DNA of 64,000 nucleotides. Origin: Escherichia coli. GTDB lineage: Bacteria; Pseudomonadota; Gammaproteobacteria; Enterobacterales; Enterobacteriaceae. The stretch is from the NCBI RefSeq assembly GCF_016903815.1, contig NZ_CP069973.1. One strand, written 5' to 3'. Below, piece after piece: positions 309-57,378 of this stretch; positions within the stretch are counted from its first letter, which is position 1, and the number at the start of each line of letters is the position of its first letter. The notes below the pieces were generated by a model. The model ran no database searches. It saw only the letters and a program-made list of their open reading frames with translations, and was not told the DNA's origin. Position numbers and translations under genes: made by a program.

Positions 309-1442
309 ATGAAAAGCAAAGTACTGGCACTTTTAATTCCTGCCCTGCTCGCCGCAGGTGCTGCACATGCAGCCGAAGTTTATAATAAAGACGGCAACAA
401 ATTAGATCTGTATGGCAAAGTTGATGGCCTGCATTATTTTTCTGATAATTCAGCGAAAGATGGCGACCAGAGCTATGCGCGTCTGGGTTTTAAAGGCGAA
501 ACCCAAATTAACGATCAACTTACTGGCTACGGTCAATGGGAATACAATATTCAGGCAAACAACACTGAATCTTCAAAAAACCAGTCATGGACCCGTCTAG
601 CATTTGCCGGACTGAAATTTGCAGATTACGGTTCTTTCGATTACGGACGTAATTATGGCGTTATGTACGACATCGAAGGCTGGACCGATATGCTGCCTGA
701 ATTTGGCGGTGACTCTTATACCAATGCAGACAACTTTATGACTGGTCGAGCCAATGGCGTCGCGACTTATCGTAATACTGATTTCTTCGGTCTGGTAAAT
801 GGTCTGAACTTCGCGGTGCAGTATCAAGGTAACAACGAAGGTGCCAGTAATGGTCAGGAAGGCACCAACAACGGACGTGATGTTCGCCATGAAAACGGTG
901 ACGGCTGGGGTCTTTCCACAACATATGATTTAGGCATGGGCTTTAGCGCTGGTGCGGCATACACCTCTTCTGACCGCACCAATGACCAGGTTAACCATAC
1001 TGCGGCGGGTGGTGATAAAGCAGACGCGTGGACTGCTGGGCTAAAATACGATGCTAACAATATTTACCTGGCAACCATGTATTCAGAAACGCGTAATATG
1101 ACCCCGTTTGGCGACAGCGATTATGCTGTTGCAAACAAAACCCAGAACTTTGAAGTTACTGCACAGTACCAGTTTGATTTTGGTCTGCGTCCGGCAGTCT
1201 CTTTCCTGATGTCTAAAGGCCGTGACCTGCACGCTGCCGGTGGTGCAGACAACCCAGCAGGTGTTGATGATAAAGATCTGGTTAAATACGCCGATGTTGG
1301 CGCGACTTACTATTTCAACAAAAATATGTCCACCTACGTTGACTATAAAATCAACCTGTTGGATGAAGATGACAGCTTCTACGCTGCCAACGGCATCTCT
1401 ACCGATGATATTGTCGCTTTAGGTCTGGTTTATCAGTTCTAA
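309..1442 (+). CDS. ompN: Outer membrane porin OmpN (OmpC/OmpF family)
   Basis: 377-aa ORF with signal peptide [21 protein letters not shown], then [23 protein letters not shown] and C-terminal ...LVYQF typical of general porins; followed by a hairpin terminator. Confidence 0.85.
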
Positions 1443-1450
1443 ATCCTCCT

Positions 1451-1475
1451 GCCCGCTGTTATGGCGGGCTTTTTC
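1451..1475 (+). terminator. Rho-independent terminator after ompN
   Basis: gcccgc-tgttat-ggcgggc stem followed by ttttt. Confidence 0.6.
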
Positions 1476-1501
1476 TGCTTATTCTTCCTCCTTTGATCTA
1501 A

Positions 1502-2017
<516 letters not shown>

Positions 2018-31789: not shown

Positions 31790-32023
31790 ATGTCAACGAA
31801 GAACAGAACCCGCAGAACAACAACCCGCAACATCCGCTTTCCTAACCAAATGATTGAACAAATTAACATCGCTCTTGAGCAAAAAGGGTCCGGGAATTTC
31901 TCAGCCTGGGTCATTGAAGCCTGCCGCCGGAGACTGTGCTCAGAAAAAAGAGTTTCTTCTGAAGCAAACAAAGAAAAGAGTGACATTACTGAATTGCTCA
32001 GAAAACAGGTCAGACCAGATTGA
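31790..32023 (+). CDS. ynfO: Small basic prophage protein, YnfO-like
   Basis: 77-aa ORF between cos and ydfO, the position of Qin ynfO; family assignment from memory. Confidence 0.55.
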   Translation: MSTKNRTRRTTTRNIRFPNQMIEQINIALEQKGSGNFSAWVIEACRRRLCSEKRVSSEANKEKSDITELLRKQVRPD

Positions 32024-32065
32024 AGCAATTTAGATAATCGTGCAGACTACGCCCCCTCATATCAC

Positions 32066-32491
32066 ATGGAAGGTTTATCTATGGATCAGGTAGTCATTTT
32101 TAAACAAATATTTGATAAAGTTCGAAACGATTTAAACTATCAATGGTTTTATTCTGAGCTAAAACGTCACAATGTCTCACATTACATTTACTATTTAGCC
32201 ACAGAGAATGTTCATATTGTATTAAAAAATGATAATACAGTGTTATTAAAGGGCCTAAAAAACATTGTGTCTGTCAAATTTTCAAAGGATAGGCATCTTA
32301 TAGAAACGACCTCTAATAAGCTGAAATCCAGAGAGATCACATTTCAGGAATACAGAAGAAACCTTGCTAAAGCAGGAGTTTTTCGGTGGGTTACAAATAT
32401 CCACGAACAAAAAAGATATTACTATACCTTTGATAATTCATTACTATTTACTGAAAGCATCCAGAAAACTACACAGATCTTACCACGCTAA
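32066..32491 (+). CDS. ydfO: DUF1398-family protein YdfO-like
   Basis: 141-aa ORF in the position of Qin ydfO. Confidence 0.65.
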
Positions 32492-32642
32492 ACCATAACG
32501 TCCGGCTTCTCTCACTCCTGAGCCGGACTGCATTGGTTTAATAAAAACCATCAACAATTGTGATTTAGATATTCGGAACCATTCAAATATAACAAAACCC
32601 CGTAAAAACGAGGTTTATGGATAAATTTTATTATTGAATACA

Positions 32643-36119: not shown

Positions 36120-36810
36120 CTCTTACCAGCCGCGCCCTAACAGGCGCACACGATCTGACATTTGCATCCAACTTCGTTACTTACGGCCCGTAAACGGGCT
36201 GCCCGGATAGGGAATCGATAACTGCTCTCCCATTTTATCCTCTTCAAGCTGGTGCTTTATGTAATCCTGTATCTTCGCCGTGTTCTTACCCACTGTATCG
36301 ACGTAGTACCCTCTGCACCAGAACTCCCTGTTCCTGTATTTGAATTTCAAATCACCAAACTGCTCGTAAAGCATCAGACTGCTTTTCCCTTTCAGATATC
36401 CCATAAACCCGGATACGCTCATTTTGGGCGGGATCTCCACAAGCATATGGATATGATCTGCACAGCATTCAGCTTCCAGAATCCGTACGCTTTTCCACTC
36501 ACACAGCTTTCTCAAAATACTGCCTATTGCTCTACGCTTCTCTCTGTAGAACACCTGTCTTCGGTATTTTGGCGCAAAAACTATGTGATATTTACAGTTC
36601 CATCGGGTGTGCGCTAAGCTCTTTTCGTTCCCCATTGGGACCCCCTTTTGATTTCTTGTTTGACACTTGCAGTTGCCAGACCGCAAGGTGTTTTAACAAA
36701 TCAAAAGGGGTTTTAATAACTGGCTCAAAGCTGAAAGCTTTCCGGAACCCCCAGCCTAGCTGGGGGTTTTCTGTGCACAATAAAAAACCCGCCTGAGCGG
36801 GTTTGAGATT
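36120..36810 (-). mobile_element. IS200-like insertion sequence (approximate bounds)
   Basis: 152-aa Y1 transposase with hairpins upstream (acccccagcctagctgggggtttt, aacccgcctgagcgggttt); about 0.7 kb, typical of IS200. Confidence 0.55.
36177..36635 (-). CDS. tnpA: IS200/IS605-family transposase TnpA (Y1 HUH)
   Basis: MGNEKSLAHTRWNCKYHIVFAPKYRRQ...HIHMLVEIPPK...; HUH motif (HIHML) and catalytic Tyr region. Confidence 0.85.
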   Translation of the reverse strand: MGNEKSLAHTRWNCKYHIVFAPKYRRQVFYREKRRAIGSILRKLCEWKSVRILEAECCADHIHMLVEIPPKMSVSGFMGYLKGKSSLMLYEQFGDLKFKYRNREFWCRGYYVDTVGKNTAKIQDYIKHQLEEDKMGEQLSIPYPGSPFTGRK

Positions 36811-42879: not shown

Positions 42880-44300
42880 CCCTATGAATGGATATGCACT
42901 CAACCGAATCGATCTTGGTTTCAATCTTTTTTATCGGGATCAGGCTTCTTTTTAGGTAACTTCGGGGGCTTAACTTGCTGATGACTTTGCGTTCGGCGCG
43001 TAAGCCAGGGATGGTCAGCTTTAGGTTTAACATAGTATTTTGAGCGTAAATCAATACGGGCATTATCCACTCGTTCATGGACACTCTTTTCATCATCCAG
43101 TGGTATAGGCTCCGGGCCATCAACATACTTTTCCCAGCCCAGCGCTTTCCCGTCATACAGAACGTTAATTTCACCGTCAAAGTTCTCGCATACAGTAACA
43201 ACCGAATGCCTAAGTCGATATCCCCGGCCCTCACTGCGTACCTGAAACGCACTGCTTTTGTACTGGAAAGTGAGATTTTTAGACAGAACGCGCTTCGCCT
43301 GTAGGCTGAAGATATAACCCAGTTCCTCTTCAGAATGGTGCACATCAAGATGAGCATTATCAGTAGTACGAGGCGACGTAGCGAACCGGTTGTTATAGGC
43401 TTCAATAAAGGTCGGCAACCATGCATTTGCTGTTTCAATATCACTGATATTCTGAAGCCGCATTTCTTTGACCAGCCTGTCCTGTAGTGTCTGATTGGCG
43501 CGCTCTACCCGCCCTTTTGCCTGCGGGCTGTTGGCATGGATTGGCTCGATGCCCAGTGTCTTTATCGCACGAGTGAACTGGGTCAGCTCACCTTCCCGCT
43601 CTGGGTTATTTACCCTGAATATACTGTGTCTATCAGAGTAGAGAGCGAGCGGTACGCCATGATCATTAAGGTAACCCCGGAGGGTTTCCATGTAAGCCCG
43701 GGTTGTTTCAGCAGGCACAAAACGCAACGCCATCAACGCACTGGTGGCATCATCAATGAAAACGATCAGTGTACATCTGGGGCCTCGATTTTCAAACCAG
43801 TCATGAGGTGAGCCATCAATCTGGATCAGTTCACCGTAAGATGGTCGTCGCATGCGGCGTTGATATATACGGGCAATTTTACGACGGCGTTCACGCCATA
43901 ACCCCTCTTCTATCATCCACTTTCTGAGAGTTTCAACGGATAAAGATAAACCGTGTATCTCGCGCAATTTTTCGCACGCAAACGTAGGTCCAAAATCAGC
44001 GTAACGGCCTTTGAGGAGTGAAATTACTGTTGCTCTGAATTCAGTAGAAAAGGAATTATTAGGACGCTTTCCACGTCGGTGGGAAACCAGACCAGAAGGC
44101 CCTTCATTTCTATACCGTTGCACCAGACGTTTAACCTGCCGAATAGAAATGCCAATGCGTGCCGCAGCTTGTTCCTGAATAATCTGAAGTCGGTGGAGTT
44201 CCTTATGACTCATCGTAACAGTCTCTTTGATCATGAAAAATCCCCCAGAGAATTGTCTGGGGACATTTTAGAATGGTTCAAAGGGGACATTACAGCTTGG
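42880..44300 (-). mobile_element. IS element with rve-type DDE transposase (IS481-family-like; ends not resolved)
   Basis: Single long transposase ORF; terminal inverted repeats could not be defined by eye. Confidence 0.4.
42921..44213 (-). CDS. DDE transposase, HTH plus integrase-core (rve) domain
   Basis: MSHKELHRLQIIQEQ... N-terminal HTH, central DDE-like core, Lys/Pro-rich tail. Confidence 0.75.
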   Translation of the reverse strand: MSHKELHRLQIIQEQAAARIGISIRQVKRLVQRYRNEGPSGLVSHRRGKRPNNSFSTEFRATVISLLKGRYADFGPTFACEKLREIHGLSLSVETLRKWMIEEGLWRERRRKIARIYQRRMRRPSYGELIQIDGSPHDWFENRGPRCTLIVFIDDATSALMALRFVPAETTRAYMETLRGYLNDHGVPLALYSDRHSIFRVNNPEREGELTQFTRAIKTLGIEPIHANSPQAKGRVERANQTLQDRLVKEMRLQNISDIETANAWLPTFIEAYNNRFATSPRTTDNAHLDVHHSEEELGYIFSLQAKRVLSKNLTFQYKSSAFQVRSEGRGYRLRHSVVTVCENFDGEINVLYDGKALGWEKYVDGPEPIPLDDEKSVHERVDNARIDLRSKYYVKPKADHPWLTRRTQSHQQVKPPKLPKKKPDPDKKD

Positions 44301-44717
44301 TGTTAACAATAGCCTGCTTCTCCGTGCCTTTCGGCACGTAAGAGGCTAACCTACATGTGTCTAGCATGAAATTGGCCTCAGATTAATGTTAAGCGTCTTG
44401 CAGGACGCGTAATGTTAACTGGGGCTTTTCTCTATCTGCCTTTGGTGTTCGTGCCCGAGGCAGATAGCCTCAAGCACCCGCCGTGATTCTACAAAAACAT
44501 TACCCACCTTTCCAGCAATTCACAACAACTCCATGCAAATAGTAAGTAGAATAATAAGTTATTAGTATTAGCAATTTACTTAGTTTCTAATTTGTGCCAA
44601 TGATTTTCATTTTTGCATGAAAAATACCTTAACATTTTATATTTACTTACTATTTGTAAGCCCCATCAGTTCTTTCTGATGGCGGCTGGTATTTCAGTTC
44701 CAGATATAGTATATGCT

Positions 44718-45746
44718 TTACGCCTTAATAGGGTTAATCACATTTCCGCTATCCGTACCATAGTATTTTTTTGTAGTCATGCCTTGTTTATAATAATCAT
44801 TTAACAGTTTGAGAAAGTTTCTTCCTTGCCTCTCATCTTCTATGACTAATTTACCATGCTCATTGGTCTTAAACTCTTCGTTCTGAAACATTTTTAGCAC
44901 ATCATTCATAGCTTGAACATCATTCTTTTCCAGAACCGTATGGTTACCTTTCTCAGCGATATGAGTGAGAATTTTTCTCAGTGATGGCTTATGAAGAATA
45001 GCTTGTTCAATAACATCTAAACCTTCAATAAGATCAAGTTCTTTAATTGTATTTAATGTTTTTTGTGCAGCTTCTGTAAACTCAACCTCCAAGCCTACAA
45101 TAGCCTCAAAACTTTTCTTATGAAATACATAAAATTGATCTTTTATATAAATACAATCGATTTTGTCATCAAAATTGACTGCGCTGCCATCAAATGATCT
45201 TAACTCTTTATCTGTTTTATCAAACAAAGCGAATACGCGCTGAGTCATATTTTGTGGTTCATTTGTTGTGACTTTCCCCCTGCTGATTTTTCGGAAAGAA
45301 TAAGTGACGTCAGCCCCCTTTTGGACTTTAATACAATAGGCCCACAAATCATTCTGAACCTCAGCAAGAGAGGTAAGTACAACTGGTTTATCATTCTTTA
45401 TATCGTTATTAATAACTTTTGAAAACGATATCGCGTTATTCATAGCATAGGCATAAATTTTATTATCAATATCATCATCAATAACAGTATGCTTTTTCAT
45501 CACAATATCATCTTTCGAAGCATGAGAAATAATCTGGTTTGATAAAGTATACTTAAAAAATTTAGCAATATCTGGAGCGATTGGAGCTTTAATGATTTTA
45601 AAATCGAATTTATCAACAACTCTTGCGGTTCTACTCATACCCGCTTTAAGATGTCTAGTAATGAAATACAACGATATTTTCGCCGCATCATCATCCTTAA
45701 GTTGCTCAGCATACTCTAATAATTCTTCAAGCTTTAACATTTTCAT
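44718..45746 (-). CDS. Soluble partner protein of candidate defense operon (KwaB-like by architecture, unverified)
   Basis: 342-aa Lys/Asp-rich AT-rich ORF; start overlaps the stop of the upstream membrane-protein gene (ATGA). Confidence 0.5.
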   Translation of the reverse strand: MKMLKLEELLEYAEQLKDDDAAKISLYFITRHLKAGMSRTARVVDKFDFKIIKAPIAPDIAKFFKYTLSNQIISHASKDDIVMKKHTVIDDDIDNKIYAYAMNNAISFSKVINNDIKNDKPVVLTSLAEVQNDLWAYCIKVQKGADVTYSFRKISRGKVTTNEPQNMTQRVFALFDKTDKELRSFDGSAVNFDDKIDCIYIKDQFYVFHKKSFEAIVGLEVEFTEAAQKTLNTIKELDLIEGLDVIEQAILHKPSLRKILTHIAEKGNHTVLEKNDVQAMNDVLKMFQNEEFKTNEHGKLVIEDERQGRNFLKLLNDYYKQGMTTKKYYGTDSGNVINPIKA

Positions 45747-46565: not shown

Positions 46566-47252
46566 TCACTCCTTCTCTTCTTTATCGTAGTGGAGTTGAC
46601 CAATTTTGATAAGAGGGCGTCCCTGAGATTTGCGGTGTAGATTGGTATCGCGCAGAGAATACACACAGCCACAATATTCCTGCTGATAGAATTTTTCGCG
46701 CTTGCTGATTTCAATCATGCGGGACGAGCCGCCCTGCTTGCGCCAGTTATAATCCCAGTACACCATGCCCGGATAATGCGCGACGGCTCGCCGCCCACAG
46801 TCGTTAACCTGCTGCATATTTTTCCAGCGTGAAATGCCCAGTGAACTGCTGATCACACTGAAACCATTTTCAGCAGCGTACAGCGCTGTCCGCTCAAAAC
46901 GCATGTCAAAACACATGGTACAACGGATCCCCCTCTCGGGCTCCCATTCCATTCCTTTGGCACGTTCAAACCAGTTGTCTGTGTCGTAATCAGCATCAAT
47001 AAATGGCACGCCGTGTTGTTCAGCAAAGCGAATATTCTCATCCTTACGAATTAAATACTCTTTCTGAGGATGAATGTTCGGGTTGTAGAAAAAGATGGTA
47101 TAGTCGATTCTCGAGGCCTGAAGTGCCTCCATCACTTCACCGGAACATGGAGCACAGCAAGAGTGCAGTAGTAGTTTGTTTGCCCCGTTTGGGAGCTCCA
47201 ATTTAGGCCGTTTGAAATCAGCAATAGTCATAAATATTTTTATTGGGGTCAT
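46566..47252 (-). CDS. DUF208 / QueH-like protein (putative epoxyqueuosine reductase family)
   Basis: [11 protein letters not shown] and FFYNPNIHP motifs plus additional Cys (CTMC, CGC) as recalled for the QueH/DUF208 family. Confidence 0.6.
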
Positions 47253-47433
47253 AAAAATAGCACAGAGTGTGGCATCAGAGCAGGGCTATCGGGAATAGAT
47301 GTCTAAATCTGGTAATATCTGCTTTTGACGCATAGCAGACAACCACGCTAGCTCAATCCTGTGCCGTGAAAATGTCAATTCACATCTGAACTAATGCTCT
47401 TTAATCTAGTTACGTCTATAAATAACGAAAATT

Positions 47434-47832
47434 TCACTGATAAAATGCCAGTATGCGCTGCATAACTTCGCTCTTCCGGCACTCACAGCAAATTATGTTT
47501 TGGTGCCTGTCATAACGACGTATTTCTCCGTCAGGTAATGACCAGATAAGGTCCGGATCAACCACAGATGTTTTCTTCACCTTTGCCCTCGAGAGTTTTT
47601 TGCGGGCGTTTTGCCAGTCCTTACGAGCCTGTTCAGACGGGAATAACCCGTAGCCAGAGTTATATACATCACCACTGGCAACCAGCTCTCTGGCGAGAAC
47701 GCTCATCAGATATCTTGTCGCACCTGTCTTGGCTTCCAGTTGCCGTAACGTCTCGCGCCCACTCCGGCGTACTAGCTCAACAACCTGCCCCTTGATTTTT
47801 TCCCGCTCTTCTTGTGTAAAAACTTTTGCCAC
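47434..47832 (-). CDS. Hypothetical prophage protein
   Basis: 132-aa basic ORF downstream of the replication initiator, with a CCEC motif; no family recognised. Confidence 0.4.
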   Translation of the reverse strand: MAKVFTQEEREKIKGQVVELVRRSGRETLRQLEAKTGATRYLMSVLARELVASGDVYNSGYGLFPSEQARKDWQNARKKLSRAKVKKTSVVDPDLIWSLPDGEIRRYDRHQNIICCECRKSEVMQRILAFYQ

Positions 47833-47872
47833 AAGTCCCCCTTAAAATTACCTCATGACCTGAAATCAAAAC

Positions 47873-48838
47873 TTATCCTCTGAAACCAGGCGGAATTTCT
47901 GTATCCGGTTCAGAAATATGATTAACACAACGCTGTACAGGTGAACGCCCCAGGCGGATGACCAGTTCGTCCCATTTTTCGCGGAGCTTTGACGGGCTCA
48001 TGATGTTTTTTACCCAGAATGGATCCCGCTGTACCCGACCAAACATTTCACAAATTTGTCTGTGACTTCTGCCATCCAGCATCCGCATTGTGCGCACATC
48101 ATTGGCCCAGACAGTCCAGTTAGGCTCTTTTGGTCGCATGATCTCGCCATCATCACTGGCGGCCTGTTCGTAGAGACCCACGATCCGCCCCCATATCCAC
48201 TGCGCACACGCCAGATCCTCCTGGCTACCCCACTGGCGTTTTTTCGCACTAAACACAACTGCGCCAGGGTGCCGGATTAAAAAATCCTGTTCAGCCGTCT
48301 GCGGGTCCGGTTGCGAAGCTTCCGGACGAAAAGTGTTTTTATTCTCTGTAGTAATCTCTGTTGTATTCTCTGTAGGATCATCGGGCCATTTTGACCCGAT
48401 GACATTGGGTCGTTTTGAACCAATGGAGCGTTTCATTTTGACCTCTTCCATCGTGTCATTTTGACCTGATGGAGCGGCGCATTTTGAACCGATGGATTCG
48501 CTCAATTTGCCATCATCTAAAAGCTCGCTCCCATAGTTAATCGTGTAGAAATTGGTCATATCGCGCTTTGATTTATTGAGCTTTTCACAACGCAAAAGCC
48601 CCAGCGTTTTCAGACTTGCAAACGCGCGCTTTAACGTTGACTCTGACCAGAATGGGAACTGTTCCAGCCATTGTTCCGTTGTGTTGTAAATCCAGCGAAC
48701 ACCATCACATTCCATGCCGGAATTGGTATCTCTCAACCAGTAATGCAACTGCTGCAACACAATGGCTTCATTTAAGCCAATCTTCATCGCAAGCTGTGTG
48801 TTTATAACCAGTGGGCGTTCAGCAAAAAGAAGGCTCAT
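47873..48838 (-). CDS. Replication initiator (lambda O-like replisome organizer) containing ori iterons
   Basis: N-terminal replisome-organizer-like region; internal 23-bp iterons encode repeated SIGSK motifs; start uncertain (48892 or 48838). Confidence 0.65.
   Translation of the reverse strand: MSLLFAERPLVINTQLAMKIGLNEAIVLQQLHYWLRDTNSGMECDGVRWIYNTTEQWLEQFPFWSESTLKRAFASLKTLGLLRCEKLNKSKRDMTNFYTINYGSELLDDGKLSESIGSKCAAPSGQNDTMEEVKMKRSIGSKRPNVIGSKWPDDPTENTTEITTENKNTFRPEASQPDPQTAEQDFLIRHPGAVVFSAKKRQWGSQEDLACAQWIWGRIVGLYEQAASDDGEIMRPKEPNWTVWANDVRTMRMLDGRSHRQICEMFGRVQRDPFWVKNIMSPSKLREKWDELVIRLGRSPVQRCVNHISEPDTEIPPGFRG
48385..48500. repeat. Origin iterons: five direct repeats at 23-bp spacing
   Basis: Core (a/g)ttttga(c/a)c at 48388, 48412, 48435, 48458 and 48481, inside the initiator gene as in lambda ori. 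Confidence 0.65.
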
Positions 48839-49340
48839 AATTCCATCCAGCTTTTTGTTGGTATTGCTGTCGATACGCAAGCTTGAAAGCAATTGCTTTT
48901 TCTATAAGTTCGTCAGTTTCACGATCCACTACGGCAGGATCAGCAAAAAGCAGTCCGGACTCCACCACATCGCCATATTCTTTGTTTAACCCGGCGATCA
49001 TGCACGTGATGCTTTTTCCGTCAGTAATTTCACGATACAACCTGAAATCACTAATCCGGATAGCCTCCATAATCGCAGGCACTAGCGCCGTGAACTTTTC
49101 ACGCTTATCCCTGGTGTCGATAGCCTTCCAGCGTTCGAATATCTTCACTCGATTAACGCCAAGCGCTCGCTGATCAACCGCGCCACCTTCATCTGTGACA
49201 CGCTGAACATCGATGTTCGGGCGCTCTTTCAAAGCCCAGAATGCTTCAGTGATTAATATCGTCGCCTGCTCCTGTGTCATTCCTGGTCGACATATCCAGG
49301 CATCCAGAGCCTCACGAGCCTGTTCAGGAGTGATTTTCAT
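48819..49340 (-). CDS. Hypothetical early-region protein (YdaT-position)
   Basis: 173-aa ORF directly downstream of the cro-like dicC. Confidence 0.45.
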   Translation of the reverse strand: MKITPEQAREALDAWICRPGMTQEQATILITEAFWALKERPNIDVQRVTDEGGAVDQRALGVNRVKIFERWKAIDTRDKREKFTALVPAIMEAIRISDFRLYREITDGKSITCMIAGLNKEYGDVVESGLLFADPAVVDRETDELIEKAIAFKLAYRQQYQQKAGWNYEPSFC

Positions 49341-49554
49341 TGTTCAACCGCCCCGCCCGCTTCGTCTTACGATATTCATCATAAACTTTGGGATCATACT
49401 GAAGCTCCCCGCCAGATGCCTCCTGTAGACGCATCGCGCGACCTTCAGGAACCAGTATCCCCCAAGCAGCAACACTTGCCAGCCTCACTCCTGCGGCATT
49501 GGCAAGCTTTGTTTTGCTGCCAAAAAAAGTAATTGCGTCAACTTTAAGCATCAA
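49324..49554 (-). CDS. dicC: Cro-like repressor DicC
   Basis: 76-aa ORF ...FFGSKTKLANAAGVRLASVAAW...LVPEGRAMRLQEASGGELQYDPKVYDEY...; divergent from dicA. Confidence 0.85.
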   Translation of the reverse strand: MMLKVDAITFFGSKTKLANAAGVRLASVAAWGILVPEGRAMRLQEASGGELQYDPKVYDEYRKTKRAGRLNNENHS

Positions 49555-49563
49555 AGCCCCCTC

Positions 49564-49582
49564 TTGTTAGACTTTTCTAACA
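49564..49582. promoter_or_regulatory. Operator palindrome in the dicC-dicA divergent promoter region
   Basis: ttgttaga-cttt-tctaaca inverted repeat. Confidence 0.6.
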
Positions 49583-49631
49583 TTATTGTGCGCGGGATAC
49601 CTAAGTCAAGAAAAATTAGAATTACCTAACT

Positions 49632-50039
49632 ATGGATACAAGAACCCTGGGCCAGCGAGTTCTGGCGCGACGAAAAGAATTACGCTTAACACAACGAGAA
49701 GCCGCGCGCCTCGCTGGAGTTGCTCACGTCACAATTTCACAATGGGAAAGAGACGAAACCCAGCCAGTCGGAAAACGATTGTTTGCTTTAGCGGATGCTC
49801 TGAAGTGCTCACCTACATGGCTAATGTTTGGTGACGAAGACAAGGCACCAGTGCCTGCACAAGAACTTCATGTGGAAACAGAGCTAACTCCCAACCACAA
49901 AGAATTGATCGAATTATTCGATGCTCTTCCATCTTCCGAGCAGGAAGCCTTGCTGTCTGAAATGCGCGCAAGAGTAGAAAACTTCAACAAACTCTTCGAA
50001 GAAATGCTTAAAGCGCGTAAAAATAAATCAATAAAATAA
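49632..50039 (+). CDS. dicA: HTH-XRE repressor DicA
   Basis: 135-aa ORF ...LTQREAARLAGVAHVTISQWERDETQPVGKRLFALADALKCSPTWLMFGDED... Confidence 0.9.
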   Translation: MDTRTLGQRVLARRKELRLTQREAARLAGVAHVTISQWERDETQPVGKRLFALADALKCSPTWLMFGDEDKAPVPAQELHVETELTPNHKELIELFDALPSSEQEALLSEMRARVENFNKLFEEMLKARKNKSIK

Positions 50040-50074
50040 CATTCTTTTCAAGTGATTAGTTGCGTCCACCCTTT

Positions 50075-50128
50075 TTGTTAGATCAATCTAACAAAAAACA
50101 CTTGCCTCTCATGTTAGGTTATTCTAAA
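50075..50128. promoter_or_regulatory. Two operator-like palindromes at the dicB-operon promoter
   Basis: ttgttaga-tcaa-tctaacaa (50075..50094) and tgttag-gttat-tctaaa (50112..50128) between dicA and ydfA. Confidence 0.6.
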
Positions 50129-51198: not shown

Positions 51199-51256
51199 TT
51201 TTCTGGTGACGTTTGGCGGTATCAGTTTTACTCCGTGACTGCTCTGCCGCCGTTTT
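51199..51256 (+). ncRNA. dicF: DicF small regulatory RNA
   Basis: tttctggtgacgtttggcggtatcagttttactccgtgactgctctgccgcc followed by a T-run; matches the DicF sequence from memory. Confidence 0.8.
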
Positions 51257-51896: not shown

Positions 51897-54368
51897 ATGA
51901 GTAAAGTCTTTATTTGCGCCGCTATTCCTGACGAACTGGCAACAAGGGAAGAAGGCGCTGTGGCTGTAGCCACAGCCATTGAAGCTGGCGACGAACGCCG
52001 TGCTCGAGCAAAATTTCACTGGCAATTCCTGGAACATTATCCGGCTGCTCAGGACTGCGTTTATAAATTTATTGTCTGCGAGGATAAACCTGGCATACCC
52101 CGCCCTGCCCTCGATTCATGGGATGCTGAATATATGCAGGAAAACCGCTGGGATGAGGAGTCTGCTTCTTTTGTCCCGGTTGAGACTGAATCCGATCCGA
52201 TGAACGTCACTTTTGACAAGCTGGCCCCTGAAGTACAGAACGCTGTCATGGTTAAGTTCGACACATGTGAAAACATCACCGTTGATATGGTTATTAGCGC
52301 ACAGGAATTGTTGCAGGAAGACATGGCAACATTCGACGGACATATCGTTGAAGCGTTGATGAAAATGCCAGAAGTTAACGCCATGTATCCGGAGCTTAAG
52401 TTGCACGCCATTGGGTGGGTTAAGCATAAATGTATTCCTGGTGCTAAATGGCCCGAAATTCAGGCAGAGATGCGCATCTGGAAAAAACGTCGCGAAGGTG
52501 AACGCAAGGAAACCGGAAAATACACGTCTGTTGTTGATCTCGCCCGCGCCAGAGCCAATCAACAGTACACTGAAAATTCAACAGGAAAAATCAGCCCGGT
52601 CATTGCTGCCATTCATCGCGAATACAAGCAGACATGGAAAACACTGGATGACGAACTGGCCTACGCTCTCTGGCCTGGTGATGTGGATGCCGGAAACATT
52701 GACGGCAGCATCCATCGCTGGGCAAAAAATGAAGTTATCGATAACGACCGCGAAGACTGGAAGCGTATCTCGGCATCAATGCGCAAACAGCCTGATGCCC
52801 TTCGCTACGACCGCCAAACTATTTTTGGCCTTGTCCGTGAACGTCCGATCGACATTCACAAAGATCCCGTAGCACTGAACAAATATATCTGCGAATACCT
52901 GACGACAAAGGGCGTGTTTGAGAATGAAGAAACAGACCTGGGCACTGTTGATGTTCTCCAGTCATCAGAAACACAAACTGATGCAGTGGAAACTGAGGTA
53001 TCTGATATCCCAAAAAATGAAACCGCGCCGGAAGCTGAACCATCTGTAGAGCGTGAGGGGCCGTTCTATTTCCTCTTCGCAGATAAGGACGGAGAAAAAT
53101 ACGGTCGCGCAAACAAACTTTCTGGTCTGGATAAGGCACTGGCTGCTGGCGCCACTGAAATCACAAAAGAAGAATATTTTGCCCGAAAAAATGGCACATA
53201 CACGGGCTTACCGCAAAATGTAGATACCGCTGAAGATTCAGAACAACCAGAGCCGATGAAAGTTACCGCTGACGAAGTAAACAACATTATGCAGGCAGCC
53301 AATATCATCCAGCCTGACGCCGATAAGTTGCTTGCTGCATCACGTGGTGAATTTGTTGAAGGGATTAGTGACCCGAATGATCCGAAATGGGTTAAGGGGA
53401 TCCAGACCCGCGATTCTGTGAACCAGAACCAGCATGAATCGGAACGGAACTACCAAAAAGCGGAACAAAACAGCCCAAATGCGTTACAAAACGAGCCAGA
53501 AACGAAACAGCCTGAATCAGTGGCGCAACAGGAAGTGGAAAAAGTCTGCACCGCCTGCGGTCAGACCGGCGGCGGCAACTGCCCTGATTGTGGCGCGGTA
53601 ATGGGCGACGCAACATACCAGGAAACATTCGATGAAGAGTATCAGGTTGAAGTTCAGGAAGATGATCCGGAGAAAATGGAAGGCGCTGAACATCCACACA
53701 AGGAGAACACTGGCGGCAATCAGCATCACGATAGCGATAATGAAACTGGCGAGACGGCAGATCACTCAATTAAGGTGAACGGTCATCACGAAATCACATC
53801 CACCAGCAGGACGTGTGACCATCTAATGATCGACCTTGAAACCATGGGAAAAAATCCTGATGCCCCGATCATCTCAATAGGTGCAATATTTTTCGATCCG
53901 CAAACCGGAGATATGGGACCGGAATTTAGTAAGACTATCGATCTGGAAACTGCTGGCGGAGTCATTGATCGGGACACCATTAAATGGTGGCTTAAGCAAT
54001 CACGCGAAGCGCAATCTGCCATTATGACCGATGAAATCCCGTTAGATGATGCACTGTTACAATTGCGGGAATTTATCGACGAAAACTCCGGTGAATTTTT
54101 TGTTCAGGTCTGGGGAAATGGAGCCAACTTCGACAACACGATTTTGCGCCGTTCATACGAACGGCAGGGGATCCCCTGCCCGTGGCGTTACTACAACGAT
54201 CGCGATGTACGCACAATCGTTGAGCTGGGGAAAGCCATAGACTTCGATGCCAGAACGGCTATTCAATTCGAAGGTGAGCGCCATAATGCACTTGATGACG
54301 CCCGTTACCAGGCAAAATACGTTTCAGTTATCTGGCAAAAACTGATCCCGAGTCAGGCTGATTCTTAA
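51897..54368 (+). CDS. Prophage exonuclease-family protein (YdfE-like N-terminus, DnaQ-like 3'-5' exonuclease C-terminal domain)
   Basis: 823-aa ORF; C-terminal DLETMG...[13 protein letters not shown] resembles the DEDDh exonuclease fold; acidic low-complexity middle region. Confidence 0.65.
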
Positions 54369-54692: not shown

Positions 54693-54792
54693 CTAAAAGC
54701 CACACTAACGTAACCGGCTCATTTAAACCGTCTGGTCTGTTTCCTCCGGCTCTACAAAAATAATGTCCATCATTTTTAATGGACACTATCGT

Positions 54793-55440
54793 ATGAAACA
54801 CCGGACCTGGATCACTGAAGCTTTACGTCTTCACTTTGAAGAACATTTACCCCGGGTTGTGGCCGGGCGTCGCCTGGGTGTACCAAAATCAACAGTTTGT
54901 AGTATGTTCGTGCGCTTTCGGAGAGCTGGCCTTTCGTGGCCTTTGCCCGCAGGCATGTCGGAGCAGGAACTTGATGCCTGCCTTTACGGACAATTTTCCA
55001 CGGTACCAGTCGTACGTCCTGAAAGCACCGTTATATCCGAAGCCCCCGTGGTAAAAAAACGTCCCCGGCGGCCCAACTTCCCTTATGAGTTTAAAATCGC
55101 CTTAGTGGAGCAGTCACTGCAGCCCGGAGCCTGTGTGGCGCAGATCGCCCGGGAAAACGGAATCAACGATAACCTGCTCTTCAACTGGCGCCATCAATAC
55201 CGGAAAGGTGGCCTGCTGCCTTCCGGAAAAAATATGCCGGCACTGCTTCCCGTGACGTTAACGCCGGAGCCGGATAATAAAATCCCGGCCCCCGCACAGG
55301 AACCAGAGCAGATAAATACACCGTCCGACAGTCTGTGTTGTGAGCTGGTTCTGCCGGCCGGAACTCTCAGGCTTAAAGGTAAACTGACGCCGGCGTTATT
55401 ACAGACACTTATCCGCGAAATAAAAGGGAGCAGCCACTGA
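54793..55440 (+). CDS. IS66-family accessory protein TnpA
   Basis: HTH-containing ORF with KRPRRPNFPYEFKIALVEQSL...; start uncertain (54763 or 54793). Confidence 0.7.
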   Translation: MKHRTWITEALRLHFEEHLPRVVAGRRLGVPKSTVCSMFVRFRRAGLSWPLPAGMSEQELDACLYGQFSTVPVVRPESTVISEAPVVKKRPRRPNFPYEFKIALVEQSLQPGACVAQIARENGINDNLLFNWRHQYRKGGLLPSGKNMPALLPVTLTPEPDNKIPAPAQEPEQINTPSDSLCCELVLPAGTLRLKGKLTPALLQTLIREIKGSSH

Positions 55441-55787
55441 TGATATCTCTCCCTGCAGGTTCGCGTATCTGGCTGGTTGCAGGTATCACCGATATGCGAA
55501 ATGGCTTTAACGGCCTGGCATCAAAAGTTCAGAACGTCCTGAAGGATGACCCGTTCTCCGGACACCTGTTCATCTTCCGCGGACGCCGGGGTGACCAGAT
55601 AAAAGTGTTGTGGGCTGACAGTGACGGACTGTGCCTCTTCACCAAACGCCTGGAGCGGGGCCGCTTCGTCTGGCCAGTCACCCGTGACGGCAAGGTGCAC
55701 CTTACTCCGGCTCAGTTATCCATGCTTCTTGAAGGTATCAACTGGAAGCACCCGAAACGAACGGAACGCGCTGGAATCCGCATATAA
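55440..55787 (+). CDS. IS66-family accessory protein TnpB
   Basis: 115-aa ORF MISLPAGSRIWLVAGITDMRNGFNGLA... Confidence 0.85.
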   Translation: MISLPAGSRIWLVAGITDMRNGFNGLASKVQNVLKDDPFSGHLFIFRGRRGDQIKVLWADSDGLCLFTKRLERGRFVWPVTRDGKVHLTPAQLSMLLEGINWKHPKRTERAGIRI

Positions 55788-55806
55788 CCCGTTGTAAAGT
55801 GAGGAT

Positions 55807-57378
55807 ATGGACACCTCACTTGCTCATGAGAACGCCCGCCTGCGGGCACTGTTGCAGACGCAACAGGACACCATCCGCCAGATGGCTGAATACAACCGCC
55901 TGCTCTCACAGCGGGTGGCGGCTTATGCTTCCGAAATCAACCGGCTGAAGGCGCTGGTTGCGAAACTGCAACGTATGCAGTTCGGTAAAAGCTCAGAAAA
56001 ACTTCGTGCAAAAACCGAACGGCAGATACAGGAAGCACAGGAGCGAATCAGCGCACTTCAGGAAGAAATGGCGGAAACGCTGGGTGAGCAATATGACCCG
56101 GTACTGCCATCCGCCCTGCGCCAGTCTTCAGCCCGTAAACCGTTACCGGCCTCACTTCCCCGTGAAACCCGGGTTATCCGGCCGGAAGAGGAATGCTGTC
56201 CTGCCTGTGGTGGTGAACTCAGTTCTCTGGGATGTGATGTGTCAGAGCAACTGGAGCTTATCAGCAGCGCCTTTAAGGTTATCGAAACACAACGTCCGAA
56301 ACAGGCCTGTTGCCGGTGCGACCATATCGTGCAGGCACCAGTACCTTCAAAACCCATTGCACGCAGTTATGCCGGAGCGGGGCTTCTGGCCCATGTTGTC
56401 ACCGGGAAATATGCAGACCATCTGCCGTTATACCGCCAGTCAGAAATATACCGTCGTCAGGGAGTGGAGCTGAGCCGTGCCACACTGGGGCGCTGGACAG
56501 GTGCTGTTGCTGAACTGCTGGAGCCGCTGTATGACGTCCTGCGCCAGTATGTGCTGATGCCCGGTAAAGTCCATGCTGATGATATCCCCGTCCCGGTCCA
56601 GGAGCCGGGCAGCGGTAAAACCCGGACAGCCCGGCTGTGGGTCTACGTCCGTGATGACCGTAACGCCGGTTCACAGATGCCCCCGGCGGTCTGGTTCGCG
56701 TACAGTCCGGACCGGAAAGGTATCCATCCACAAAATCACCTGGCCGGTTACAGCGGTGTGCTTCAGGCCGATGCTTACGGTGGTTACCGGGCGTTATACG
56801 AATCCGGCAGAATAACGGAAGCCGCGTGTATGGCTCATGCCCGGAGAAAAATCCACGATGTGCATGCAAGAGCGCCCACCTACATCACCACGGAAGCCCT
56901 GCAGCGTATCGGTGAACTGTATGCCATCGAGGCAGAGGTCCGGGGCTGTTCAGCAGAACAGCGTCTGGCGGCAAGAAAAGCCAGAGCCGCGCCACTGATG
57001 CAGTCACTGTATGACTGGATACAGCAACAGATGAAAACACTGTCGCGTCACTCAGATACGGCAAAAGCGTTCGCATACCTGCTGAAACAGTGGGATGCAC
57101 TGAACGTGTACTGCAGTAATGGCTGGGTGGAAATCGACAACAACATCGCAGAGAACGCCTTACGGGGAGTGGCCGTAGGCCGGAAAAACTGGATGTTCGC
57201 GGGTTCCAACAGCGGTGGTGAACATGCGGCGGTGTTGTACTCGCTGATCGGCACATGCCGTCTGAACAATGTGGAGCCAGAAAAGTGGCTGCGTTACGTC
57301 ATTGAACATATCCAGGACTGGCCGGCAAACCGGGTACGCGATCTGTTGCCCTGGAAAGTTGATCTGAGCTCTCAGTAA
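55807..57378 (+). CDS. IS66-family transposase TnpC
   Basis: 523-aa ORF with N-terminal leucine zipper, CxxC zinc-finger region and DDE core. Confidence 0.85.

Follow-up and report, generated by a model that had tools for sequence, protein, structure and literature searches.

Does a run of direct repeats in the middle of a prophage gene act as DNA, marking the place where the phage genome starts to replicate, or does it simply encode a repetitive stretch of protein? This question is raised by a stretch of 64,000 nucleotides (nt) of the Escherichia coli contig NZ_CP069973.1 (assembly GCF_016903815.1), analysed here as a whole and referred to as the window, in which a gene for a replication initiator of 321 amino acids (aa) (47873-48838, minus strand; PHROG 391, 'replication initiation O-like', E 3e-92) carries such repeats between the parts that encode its two domains. 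An earlier note made from the letters of this DNA had proposed a lambda-like origin with its iterons inside the initiator gene, and every prediction that this makes at the sequence level holds: the repeats lie between domains and form dyads, an AT-rich tract is present, the DNA itself is constrained and the repeats co-vary with the protein. We conclude that a lambdoid prophage at the Qin locus very probably has its vegetative replication origin at 48329-48519, inside its initiator gene and within the central part that codes for the linker. The anatomy of the element, selection on the DNA itself, the co-variation of iterons with the N-terminal domain and the domain homologies of the initiator are established, and a lambda-style origin within a gene is the expected arrangement, unsurprising to phage replication specialists.

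Iterons and the AT-rich 12-mer array

Exact matches to the core RTTTTGAMC occur five times in the window, all on a single strand, starting at 48388, 48412, 48435, 48458 and 48481 and spanning 48388-48489 with spacings of 23 or 24 base pairs (bp); these are the same five positions that had been proposed as repeats with 23-bp periodicity. Their total number is not above chance (5 observed vs 3.5 expected) and the significance lies only in their clustering, as more than two matches within 110 bp were found in 0/300 dinucleotide-preserving shuffles and about 2e-10 five-hit clusters are expected by chance. A second cluster of the motif is absent from the 64 kb. Tandem Repeats Finder, the check asked for by the earlier note, reported a period of 23 with 3.7 copies, and a repeat search recovered 23-nt units, each with an internal dyad (for example TCATCGGGCCA/TGACCCGATGA), that are spaced 24/46/23 and 23/23/23.

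In coding orientation the units read CATCRGGTCAAAATGNCNCGATG and comprise five good iterons plus a degenerate one, all on the minus strand: iteron 1 (TCCATCGGTTCAAAATGCGCCGC, 48474-48496), iteron 2 (TCCATCAGGTCAAAATGACACGA, 48451-48473), iteron 3 (TGGAAGAGGTCAAAATGAAACGC, 48428-48450), iteron 4 (TCCATTGGTTCAAAACGACCCAA, 48405-48427) and iteron 5 (GTCATCGGGTCAAAATGGCCCGA, 48381-48403). The degenerate sixth copy, iteron 0 (TAGATGATGGCAAATTGAGCGAA; coding strand GATGGCAAATTGAGC), occupies 48497-48519, in register and 23 bp upstream of iteron 1, and is the fourth member of repeat family D1; its position holds a good iteron in phages mEp460_4F5 and Kp4882-3. Two dyads were detected, CATTGGGTC/GAACCAATG in iteron 4 (I8) and the best one in iteron 5 (I2), which has 11-nt arms that are 91% complementary and adjoins the AT-rich element, and the CAAAA of the core forms a central A-tract. 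When the strand was folded as a single strand, iterons 4 and 5 formed hairpins and the AT-rich segment stayed unpaired; an Rfam scan of the origin region gave no RNA family.

The AT-rich segment (48329-48378, minus strand), the presumed DNA-unwinding element, contains three tandem 12-mers at 48340-48375 (TATTCTCTGTAG, TAATCTCTGTTG, TATTCTCTGTAG), which on the coding strand are TACAGAGAATAC AACAGAGATTAC TACAGAGAATAA and are read TENTTEITTEN. The earlier note had listed here a shorter repeat present twice; the repeat is real but forms a three-copy array. The segment has a GC content of 35% (measured over 48320-48379) and is the least stable duplex of both 36 and 50 bp in the 47434-49554 operon segment by nearest-neighbour calculation (z = 2.9-3.0). 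It lies on the promoter-distal side of the iterons, as does lambda's AT-rich unwinding tract. Within the 966-nt gene the repeats occupy nt 320-458 and the 12-mers nt 464-499, and the repeats thereby fall in the linker-coding part, between the N-terminal domain (aa 1-105) and the lambda-O-like C-terminal domain (after about aa 190).

Constraint on the DNA and co-variation with the initiator

Counted from iteron 1 to iteron 5, the core TCAAAA begins at codon positions 1, 3, 2, 1 and 1 and is translated as SK, GQN, VKM, SK and SK, respectively. Since 23 is not a multiple of 3, two of the cores are not read IGSK, and the SIGSK-type peptide once ascribed to every repeat is encoded by three cores (IGSK), the other two giving GQND and EVKM. 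The 23-bp unit is thus read in all three codon phases and there is therefore no peptide repeat.

Allele diversity was analyzed in 46 distinct 966-nt alleles, taken from 80 IMG/VR loci, phage HannyBb and the window. The IMG/VR relatives came from a scan of viral contigs with N-terminal-domain alignment; all are at least 97% identical and they were used for allele diversity, not for co-variation. The regions for the N-terminal domain, C-terminal domain and tail had a diversity of 0.14-0.20 at third codon positions, as against 0.004-0.03 at positions 1 and 2; third-position diversity fell to 0.023 in the iteron zone and 0.017 in the 12-mer zone. Comparing third positions of the whole origin zone with those outside gave 0.022 vs 0.154 (Mann-Whitney p = 6e-8), and 12/64 third positions were polymorphic in the zone vs 134/257 outside (Fisher p = 1e-6). 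The codon-position periodicity of diversity is lost inside the origin zone, and positions 1 and 2 show no fall there. The core was not more conserved than the spacer within the iteron zone (0.040 vs 0.029), and because both are equally conserved we do not claim a conservation specific to the core. The repeats are constrained as DNA and not as protein.

The repeats also follow the N-terminal domain of the initiator from phage to phage. Where the same N-terminal domain is joined to other C-terminal domains, five or six copies of the motif are kept, as in mEp460_4F5, Klebsiella phage Kp4882-3, Providencia phage PSTCR8lys and Erwinia phage PEp14, the last with the iteron variant GAGGGCAAATTGCCCTC. 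In the Staphylococcus phage vB_SauS_fPfSau02 a 'DnaD domain protein' (gene 1137-1892, minus strand) has an N-terminal domain 47% identical to that of the window initiator, and the phage has three AGGTCAAAATGNCNCGA units spaced 23 bp (iteron AGGTCAAAATG), this region giving a blastn match of 85.5% identity. Because this phage shares both the N-terminal domain and the iteron, the pairing of protein domain and DNA site is conserved across phyla. Unrelated N-terminal domains, such as those of the Stx1-phage O protein and of Bacillus phages BtCS33 and PM1, carry different repeats.

To place this pairing on a wider base, viral contigs were scanned for a pair of the 12-mers, which gave at least 120 stretches and 73 usable loci, and N-terminal-domain subfamilies were defined at ≥45% identity over ≥70 aa; single-linkage clustering at E 1e-6 was rejected, as it merged unrelated N-terminal domains. 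Among the matches listed, the 73 loci fell into 11 subfamilies combined with many C-terminal-domain clusters, and each subfamily has its own repeat, nearly always at 23-bp spacing and directly upstream of the 12-mers. Most proteins recovered in a homologue search with the N-terminal domain were short or partial and lacked Pfam domains; their spread reaches Brevibacillus. Homologous initiators might have lacked the repeats, a possibility raised beforehand as an objection; they carry them. As judged from these sequences, the sequence of the repeat co-varies with the N-terminal domain across phages.

Beside these changing repeats, the 12-mer ACAGAGAWTACW hardly varies: it adjoins the repeats of unrelated initiators in nearly the same form, in phages of Gram-negative as well as Gram-positive hosts. 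Its frame, TE(N/I)T, is the same in 79/80 loci among the matches listed, and its copy number differs between E. coli alleles, being 3 or 5. Codon usage in the 24 nt that flank the searched 12-mer pattern on each side was compared with that elsewhere in the same open reading frames (ORFs): Glu codons in the flanks were 84% GAG vs 38% elsewhere (p = 8e-18) and Thr codons 83% ACA/ACT vs 50% elsewhere (p = 8e-24). This bias points to a constraint at the DNA level; tandem duplication also copies codons. A string search of the open-access literature (TTEITTE, TENTTE, 12-mer DNA) gave no description of the element.

A mosaic initiator and its known relatives

The initiator ORF described in the earlier note is confirmed, with a shorter length: the 339 aa given there correspond to an ORF listing extended to a TTG at 48892, and both RefSeq and the phage records start at the ATG at 48838. 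The resulting 966-nt coding sequence is annotated in phage HannyBb and in RefSeq (WP_000054487.1, 'hypothetical protein'). A Pfam scan at independent E ≤ 10 gave no RepA_N (PF06970), only chance-level Slx4 and YLR146W-A, and Phage_rep_O (PF04492) had no match in the protein. A weak match to YteR among Protein Data Bank (PDB) entries was dismissed as a chance local match.

The N-terminal domain (aa 1-105; 48524-48838, minus strand) is presumed to bind the iterons. An AlphaFold2 model of aa 1-111 is a winged helix (predicted local distance difference test score, pLDDT, 84), and its fold is closest to plasmid RepA_N and DnaD proteins and not to lambda O. A lambda-O-like C-terminal domain follows (about aa 190-300; 47939-48271, minus strand), as BLASTP aligned aa 147-294 with lambda O 135-270 (148 aa, 34% identity, E 3e-27); for the first 146 residues there was no alignment to lambda O. 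The last 20 residues (QRCVNHISEPDTEIPPGFRG; 47876-47935, minus strand) resemble the C-terminal end of the host protein DnaT: in a phmmer search against PDB chains the tail aligned with DnaT 160-179 (E 2.6e-4 to 6.4e-4), and it is nearly identical to the DnaT end, including the terminal IPPGFRG, over initiator residues 301-321 and DnaT 159/160-179. The rest of the initiator has no similarity to the N-terminal domain of DnaT or to its three-helix C-terminal domain, and the label 'Primosomal protein I' in several phage records is due to this tail match. The initiator is a mosaic: its winged helix is of the RepA_N/DnaD type and goes with RepA_N-like iterons, its C-terminal domain resembles that of lambda O, and it ends in a DnaT-like tail. 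It does not belong to the lambda O family in the strict sense, its N-terminal domain being non-homologous and no P gene following it, and it is predicted to be an origin-binding initiator, not a restart factor like DnaT.

The tail recurs in the wider set of loci. Among the matches listed, a GFRG-type tail was found on 32/73 cassette loci and on more than one type of C-terminal domain, for example on the lambda-O-like protein of the window and on that of Kp4882-3. A DnaC-like neighbour gene was found in 1/32 of the GFRG-tailed loci, leaving 31/32 without an adjacent loader as judged by a Walker-A regular expression, which is a crude detector. The tail-less relatives include some that are followed by DnaC-like and DnaB-like genes or by a lambda-P-like gene. 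This anticorrelation between tail and loader is indicative, a lead and not a result. Papers on DnaT assign no partner to its residues 154-179 (PMC4132743; PMC13377028).

Several characterized systems share parts of this organization. In lambda, whose ori has four iterons and an AT-rich tract in gene O, and in the Stx phages 933W and P27, which have six iterons, the origin lies in the middle of the initiator gene downstream of pR, as it does here. The likeness extends to dyad-symmetric iterons of 18-19 bp around an A-tract that start every 20-24 bp, to a promoter-distal AT-rich tract and to the homologous C-terminal domain (34% identity to lambda O), and the extra promoter-proximal iterons recall those of Stx phages (PMC7466680). 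In contrast, the N-terminal DNA-binding domain of the present initiator is unrelated in sequence to that of lambda O, its iteron is GGTCAAAATG and not TCCCTCAAAACGAGGGA as in lambda, and the locus has a strict 23-bp spacing, no P gene, a DnaT-like tail and an AT-rich tract made of tandem 12-mers.

A winged helix of the RepA_N/DnaD type is, according to the structural model, also shared with the RepA_N initiators (RepA of pSK41 and pTZ2162, RepA of Vibrio PLE, and the related DnaD/DnaB N-terminal fold). According to their published description, RepA_N iterons are direct repeats of semi-palindromic structure, with inverted repeats converging on a poly-A tract (PMC7145576), and the units found here agree with it. 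However, the present initiator has no Pfam RepA_N sequence match, occurs in phages and prophages and carries a lambda-O-like C-terminal domain. With E. coli DnaT (primosomal protein I) only the tail of the last 20 residues is shared. The gene order, finally, is that of the non-lambdoid Eru8 and Eru11 regions of Stx phages (YdaT next to cI), in which a repressor, cro, a YdaT-like gene and a helix-turn-helix replication protein follow one another (PMC8951638); Eru types were set by gene content alone, and that work states the replication proteins to be uncharacterised and describes no origins (PMC8951638).

Prophage context, alternative readings and implications

Several complete genomes from human isolates contain 47400-49600 with 100% identity, among them that of strain 7/2 (NZ_CP023820). 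The RefSeq annotation of the latter assigns the segment to a lambdoid prophage of the Qin locus, adjacent to rspB, that also has dicB, relBE, hokD and cold-shock, lysis and packaging genes. The early-right operon on the minus strand consists of a pR-like promoter, a DicC-like cro, a YdaT/CII-like gene, the initiator and a Ren-like/DUF977 gene. The promoter (TTGACT, 16-nt spacer, AATAAT; 49582-49609, minus strand) is the only promoter-like site in 47300-50100; it lies between the divergent DicA-like repressor gene (49632-50039) and the DicC-like cro (49324-49554, minus strand; NCBIfam DicC, E 1.9e-49) and would drive cro, the ydaT-like gene, the initiator and the origin. The YdaT/CII-like gene (48819-49340, minus strand) matches PHROG 163 (CII-like) and is named 'toxin YdaT family protein' in RefSeq; the initiator ATG at 48838 overlaps its end (stop codon 48819-48821) by 20 nt, which suggests translational coupling. 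The Ren-like gene (47434-47832, minus strand; PHROG 142, E 4e-44; DUF977 in RefSeq) occupies the position of lambda P and does not encode a helicase loader.

The deposited complete genomes of phages HannyBb, mEp460_ev081 and PhiR42_1 match gene and origin collinearly, at about 96% identity and without frameshifts. The HannyBb record has the Ren-like gene after the initiator and no P- or DnaC-like loader annotated downstream, as in the window, nor any loader between the initiator and the Q-like antiterminator; in the records of mEp460_ev081 and PhiR42_1 the matching region carries the same four gene products. Because HannyBb has the same gene order and the other two the same four products, phages of this type appear normally to encode the initiator without a loader of its own, in an 'initiator-solo' layout. 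The proposal that the replication module is intact is supported in part, for the gene and the origin, which are collinear with three phage genomes; the module has no loader gene, and the prophage carries several insertion sequences (IS).

Other features of the prophage were also recorded. Downstream of the replication genes lies a Kiwa anti-phage system as prophage cargo (KwaA 45743-46357, KwaB 44718-45746, minus strand), with PADLOC matches at E 1e-101 and 5e-158 and NCBIfam scores below cutoff. Between it and the Ren-like gene there is a QueH-type epoxyqueuosine reductase gene (46566-47252, minus strand; name from RefSeq, PHROG 3217 of unknown function), an unusual cargo for an E. coli prophage. 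Rfam detected DicF RNA (51201-51252, plus strand) and the sok antitoxin RNA (44308-44479, minus strand) with hokD nearby, which fits the Qin-type identity, and the early-left operon contains an ORF for an 823-aa 'exonuclease' (51897-54368, plus strand) whose N-terminal two thirds are acidic and of low complexity.

From this arrangement we infer a course of events that covers binding, unwinding, helicase recruitment and origin activity. Derepression would allow transcription from the pR-like promoter (~49600, minus strand) and synthesis of the initiator, whose winged-helix N-terminal domain, probably as dimers, would bind the five good iterons and the degenerate one to form an O-some-like complex. 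The adjacent 12-mer array, being the least stable duplex of the operon, would then melt, and the lambda-O-like C-terminal domain together with the DnaT-like tail would recruit the host helicase, probably through the host DnaC-DnaB, since the phage encodes no loader of its own.

Several observations weigh against an active origin of this kind or weaken the evidence for it. Pfam and NCBIfam scans of the initiator gave no usable family match, and experimental evidence for this initiator family was not found in the searchable literature. No lambda-P or DnaC-type helicase-loader gene stands next to the initiator, which makes the arrival of the helicase a conjecture. The 46 alleles are closely related (N-terminal domain at least 97% identical), and recombination or gene conversion could partly account for the low diversity of the zone. 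In addition, the prophage carries IS1 (~31932-32629), IS200C (36177-36635), a partial ISNCY transposase (43191-44234) and, between xis and int, ISCro1 of the IS66 family (54763-57378, at the excisionase/integrase genes), with coordinates transferred from the RefSeq annotation of the identical genome; because of these insertions it may be defective, and non-inducible in this strain, even with an intact origin.

Alternative explanations of the array differ in how much of the evidence they can accommodate. If the repeats were only a feature of the protein, a SIGSK-type peptide in a flexible linker with no function in the DNA, then (S)IGSK in 3/5 units and the single frame of the 12-mers (79/80 of the loci listed) would be explained, but a unit that rotates through all three phases to give three unrelated peptides already contradicts this for the iterons; synonymous diversity collapses in the zone where codon positions 1 and 2 do not fall, and the Staphylococcus phage keeps the DNA motif despite its different codon usage, so that we regard this explanation as extremely improbable. 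Hardly more credible is that the array consists of control sites for the initiator or another regulator (autoregulation, titration, handcuffing, incompatibility or exclusion of related phages) and that the true origin lies elsewhere. Control functions are reported for plasmid iteron arrays (PMC4980987), and ectopic copies of ori-lambda are reported to inhibit related phages (PMC3349717, PMC4488673); however, the window holds no other cluster of the motif, the operon's least stable duplex directly adjoins the array, and the order seen here (N-terminal domain, iterons, AT-rich segment, C-terminal domain) is that of the origins mapped experimentally in lambda, Stx phages and RepA_N replicons (PMC7466680; PMC7145576).

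That the origin looks intact but is dead, belonging to a decaying Qin-locus prophage whose loader-less initiator cannot fire in this strain, is unlikely, if less so than the preceding explanations. The Qin prophage of K-12 is known to be defective, four IS elements are present here, one of them between xis and int, and there is no P or DnaC-like gene. Yet the initiator ORF has its full length, dozens of IMG/VR contigs encode an identical N-terminal domain, and the loader-less gene order of HannyBb and the same four products of mEp460_ev081 and PhiR42_1 recur in phage genomes; moreover, this explanation bears on activity in this strain and not on the identity of the element. For the 12-mers alone, a rather doubtful but weightier alternative is that they are not an unwinding element but a short patch of homology for in-frame swapping of modules, one made of the N-terminal domain plus iterons and the other of the C-terminal domain. 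This would account for a 12-mer that stands between at least 11 N-terminal-domain subfamilies and a large variety of C-terminal-domain clusters, with a constant frame and with 3 or 5 copies between alleles. On the other hand, the 12-mers are the stability minimum of the operon exactly at the position of lambda's AT-rich unwinding tract, and ACAGAG codons are preferred in their flanks, although duplication of the unit could also produce that bias. The two roles of the 12-mers are not mutually exclusive.

Reading the segment as a replication origin has consequences beyond this strain. The origin segment is present in 1886/5426 complete E. coli genomes (~35%), in which the gene is mostly labelled 'hypothetical protein', and naming origin and initiator improves prophage annotation. 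It also predicts where amplification driven by induction would start, here beside Kiwa, the QueH-like gene and the RelBE and HokD toxin systems, and it provides a defined target for origin-based exclusion or incompatibility. As a tentative extension, which we consider somewhat less probable than not, the locus may be one case of a portable origin cassette common to phages of Proteobacteria and Firmicutes. Its four parts, in fixed order, would be one of many winged-helix N-terminal domains; that domain's own iterons, phased at 23 bp; the near-invariant ACAGAGAWTACW 12-mer, always read TE(N/I)T, which would serve for unwinding or loading and also as the joint for recombination in frame; and exchangeable C-terminal domains, of which one class ends in a copy of the last 20 residues of host DnaT. 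No description of such a cassette was found in the literature searched. If true, an initiator without a loader could use its DnaT-tail copy to hijack the host primosome or the DnaC-DnaB pathway, and a role in binding a partner would be suggested for the uncharacterised tail of DnaT itself. The wider leads are thus a 12-mer shared across phyla with a fixed 23-bp phasing of iterons and a DnaT-tail copy on loader-less initiators, and if confirmed experimentally they could inform generally on how phage origins melt and how phages capture the helicase of their host.

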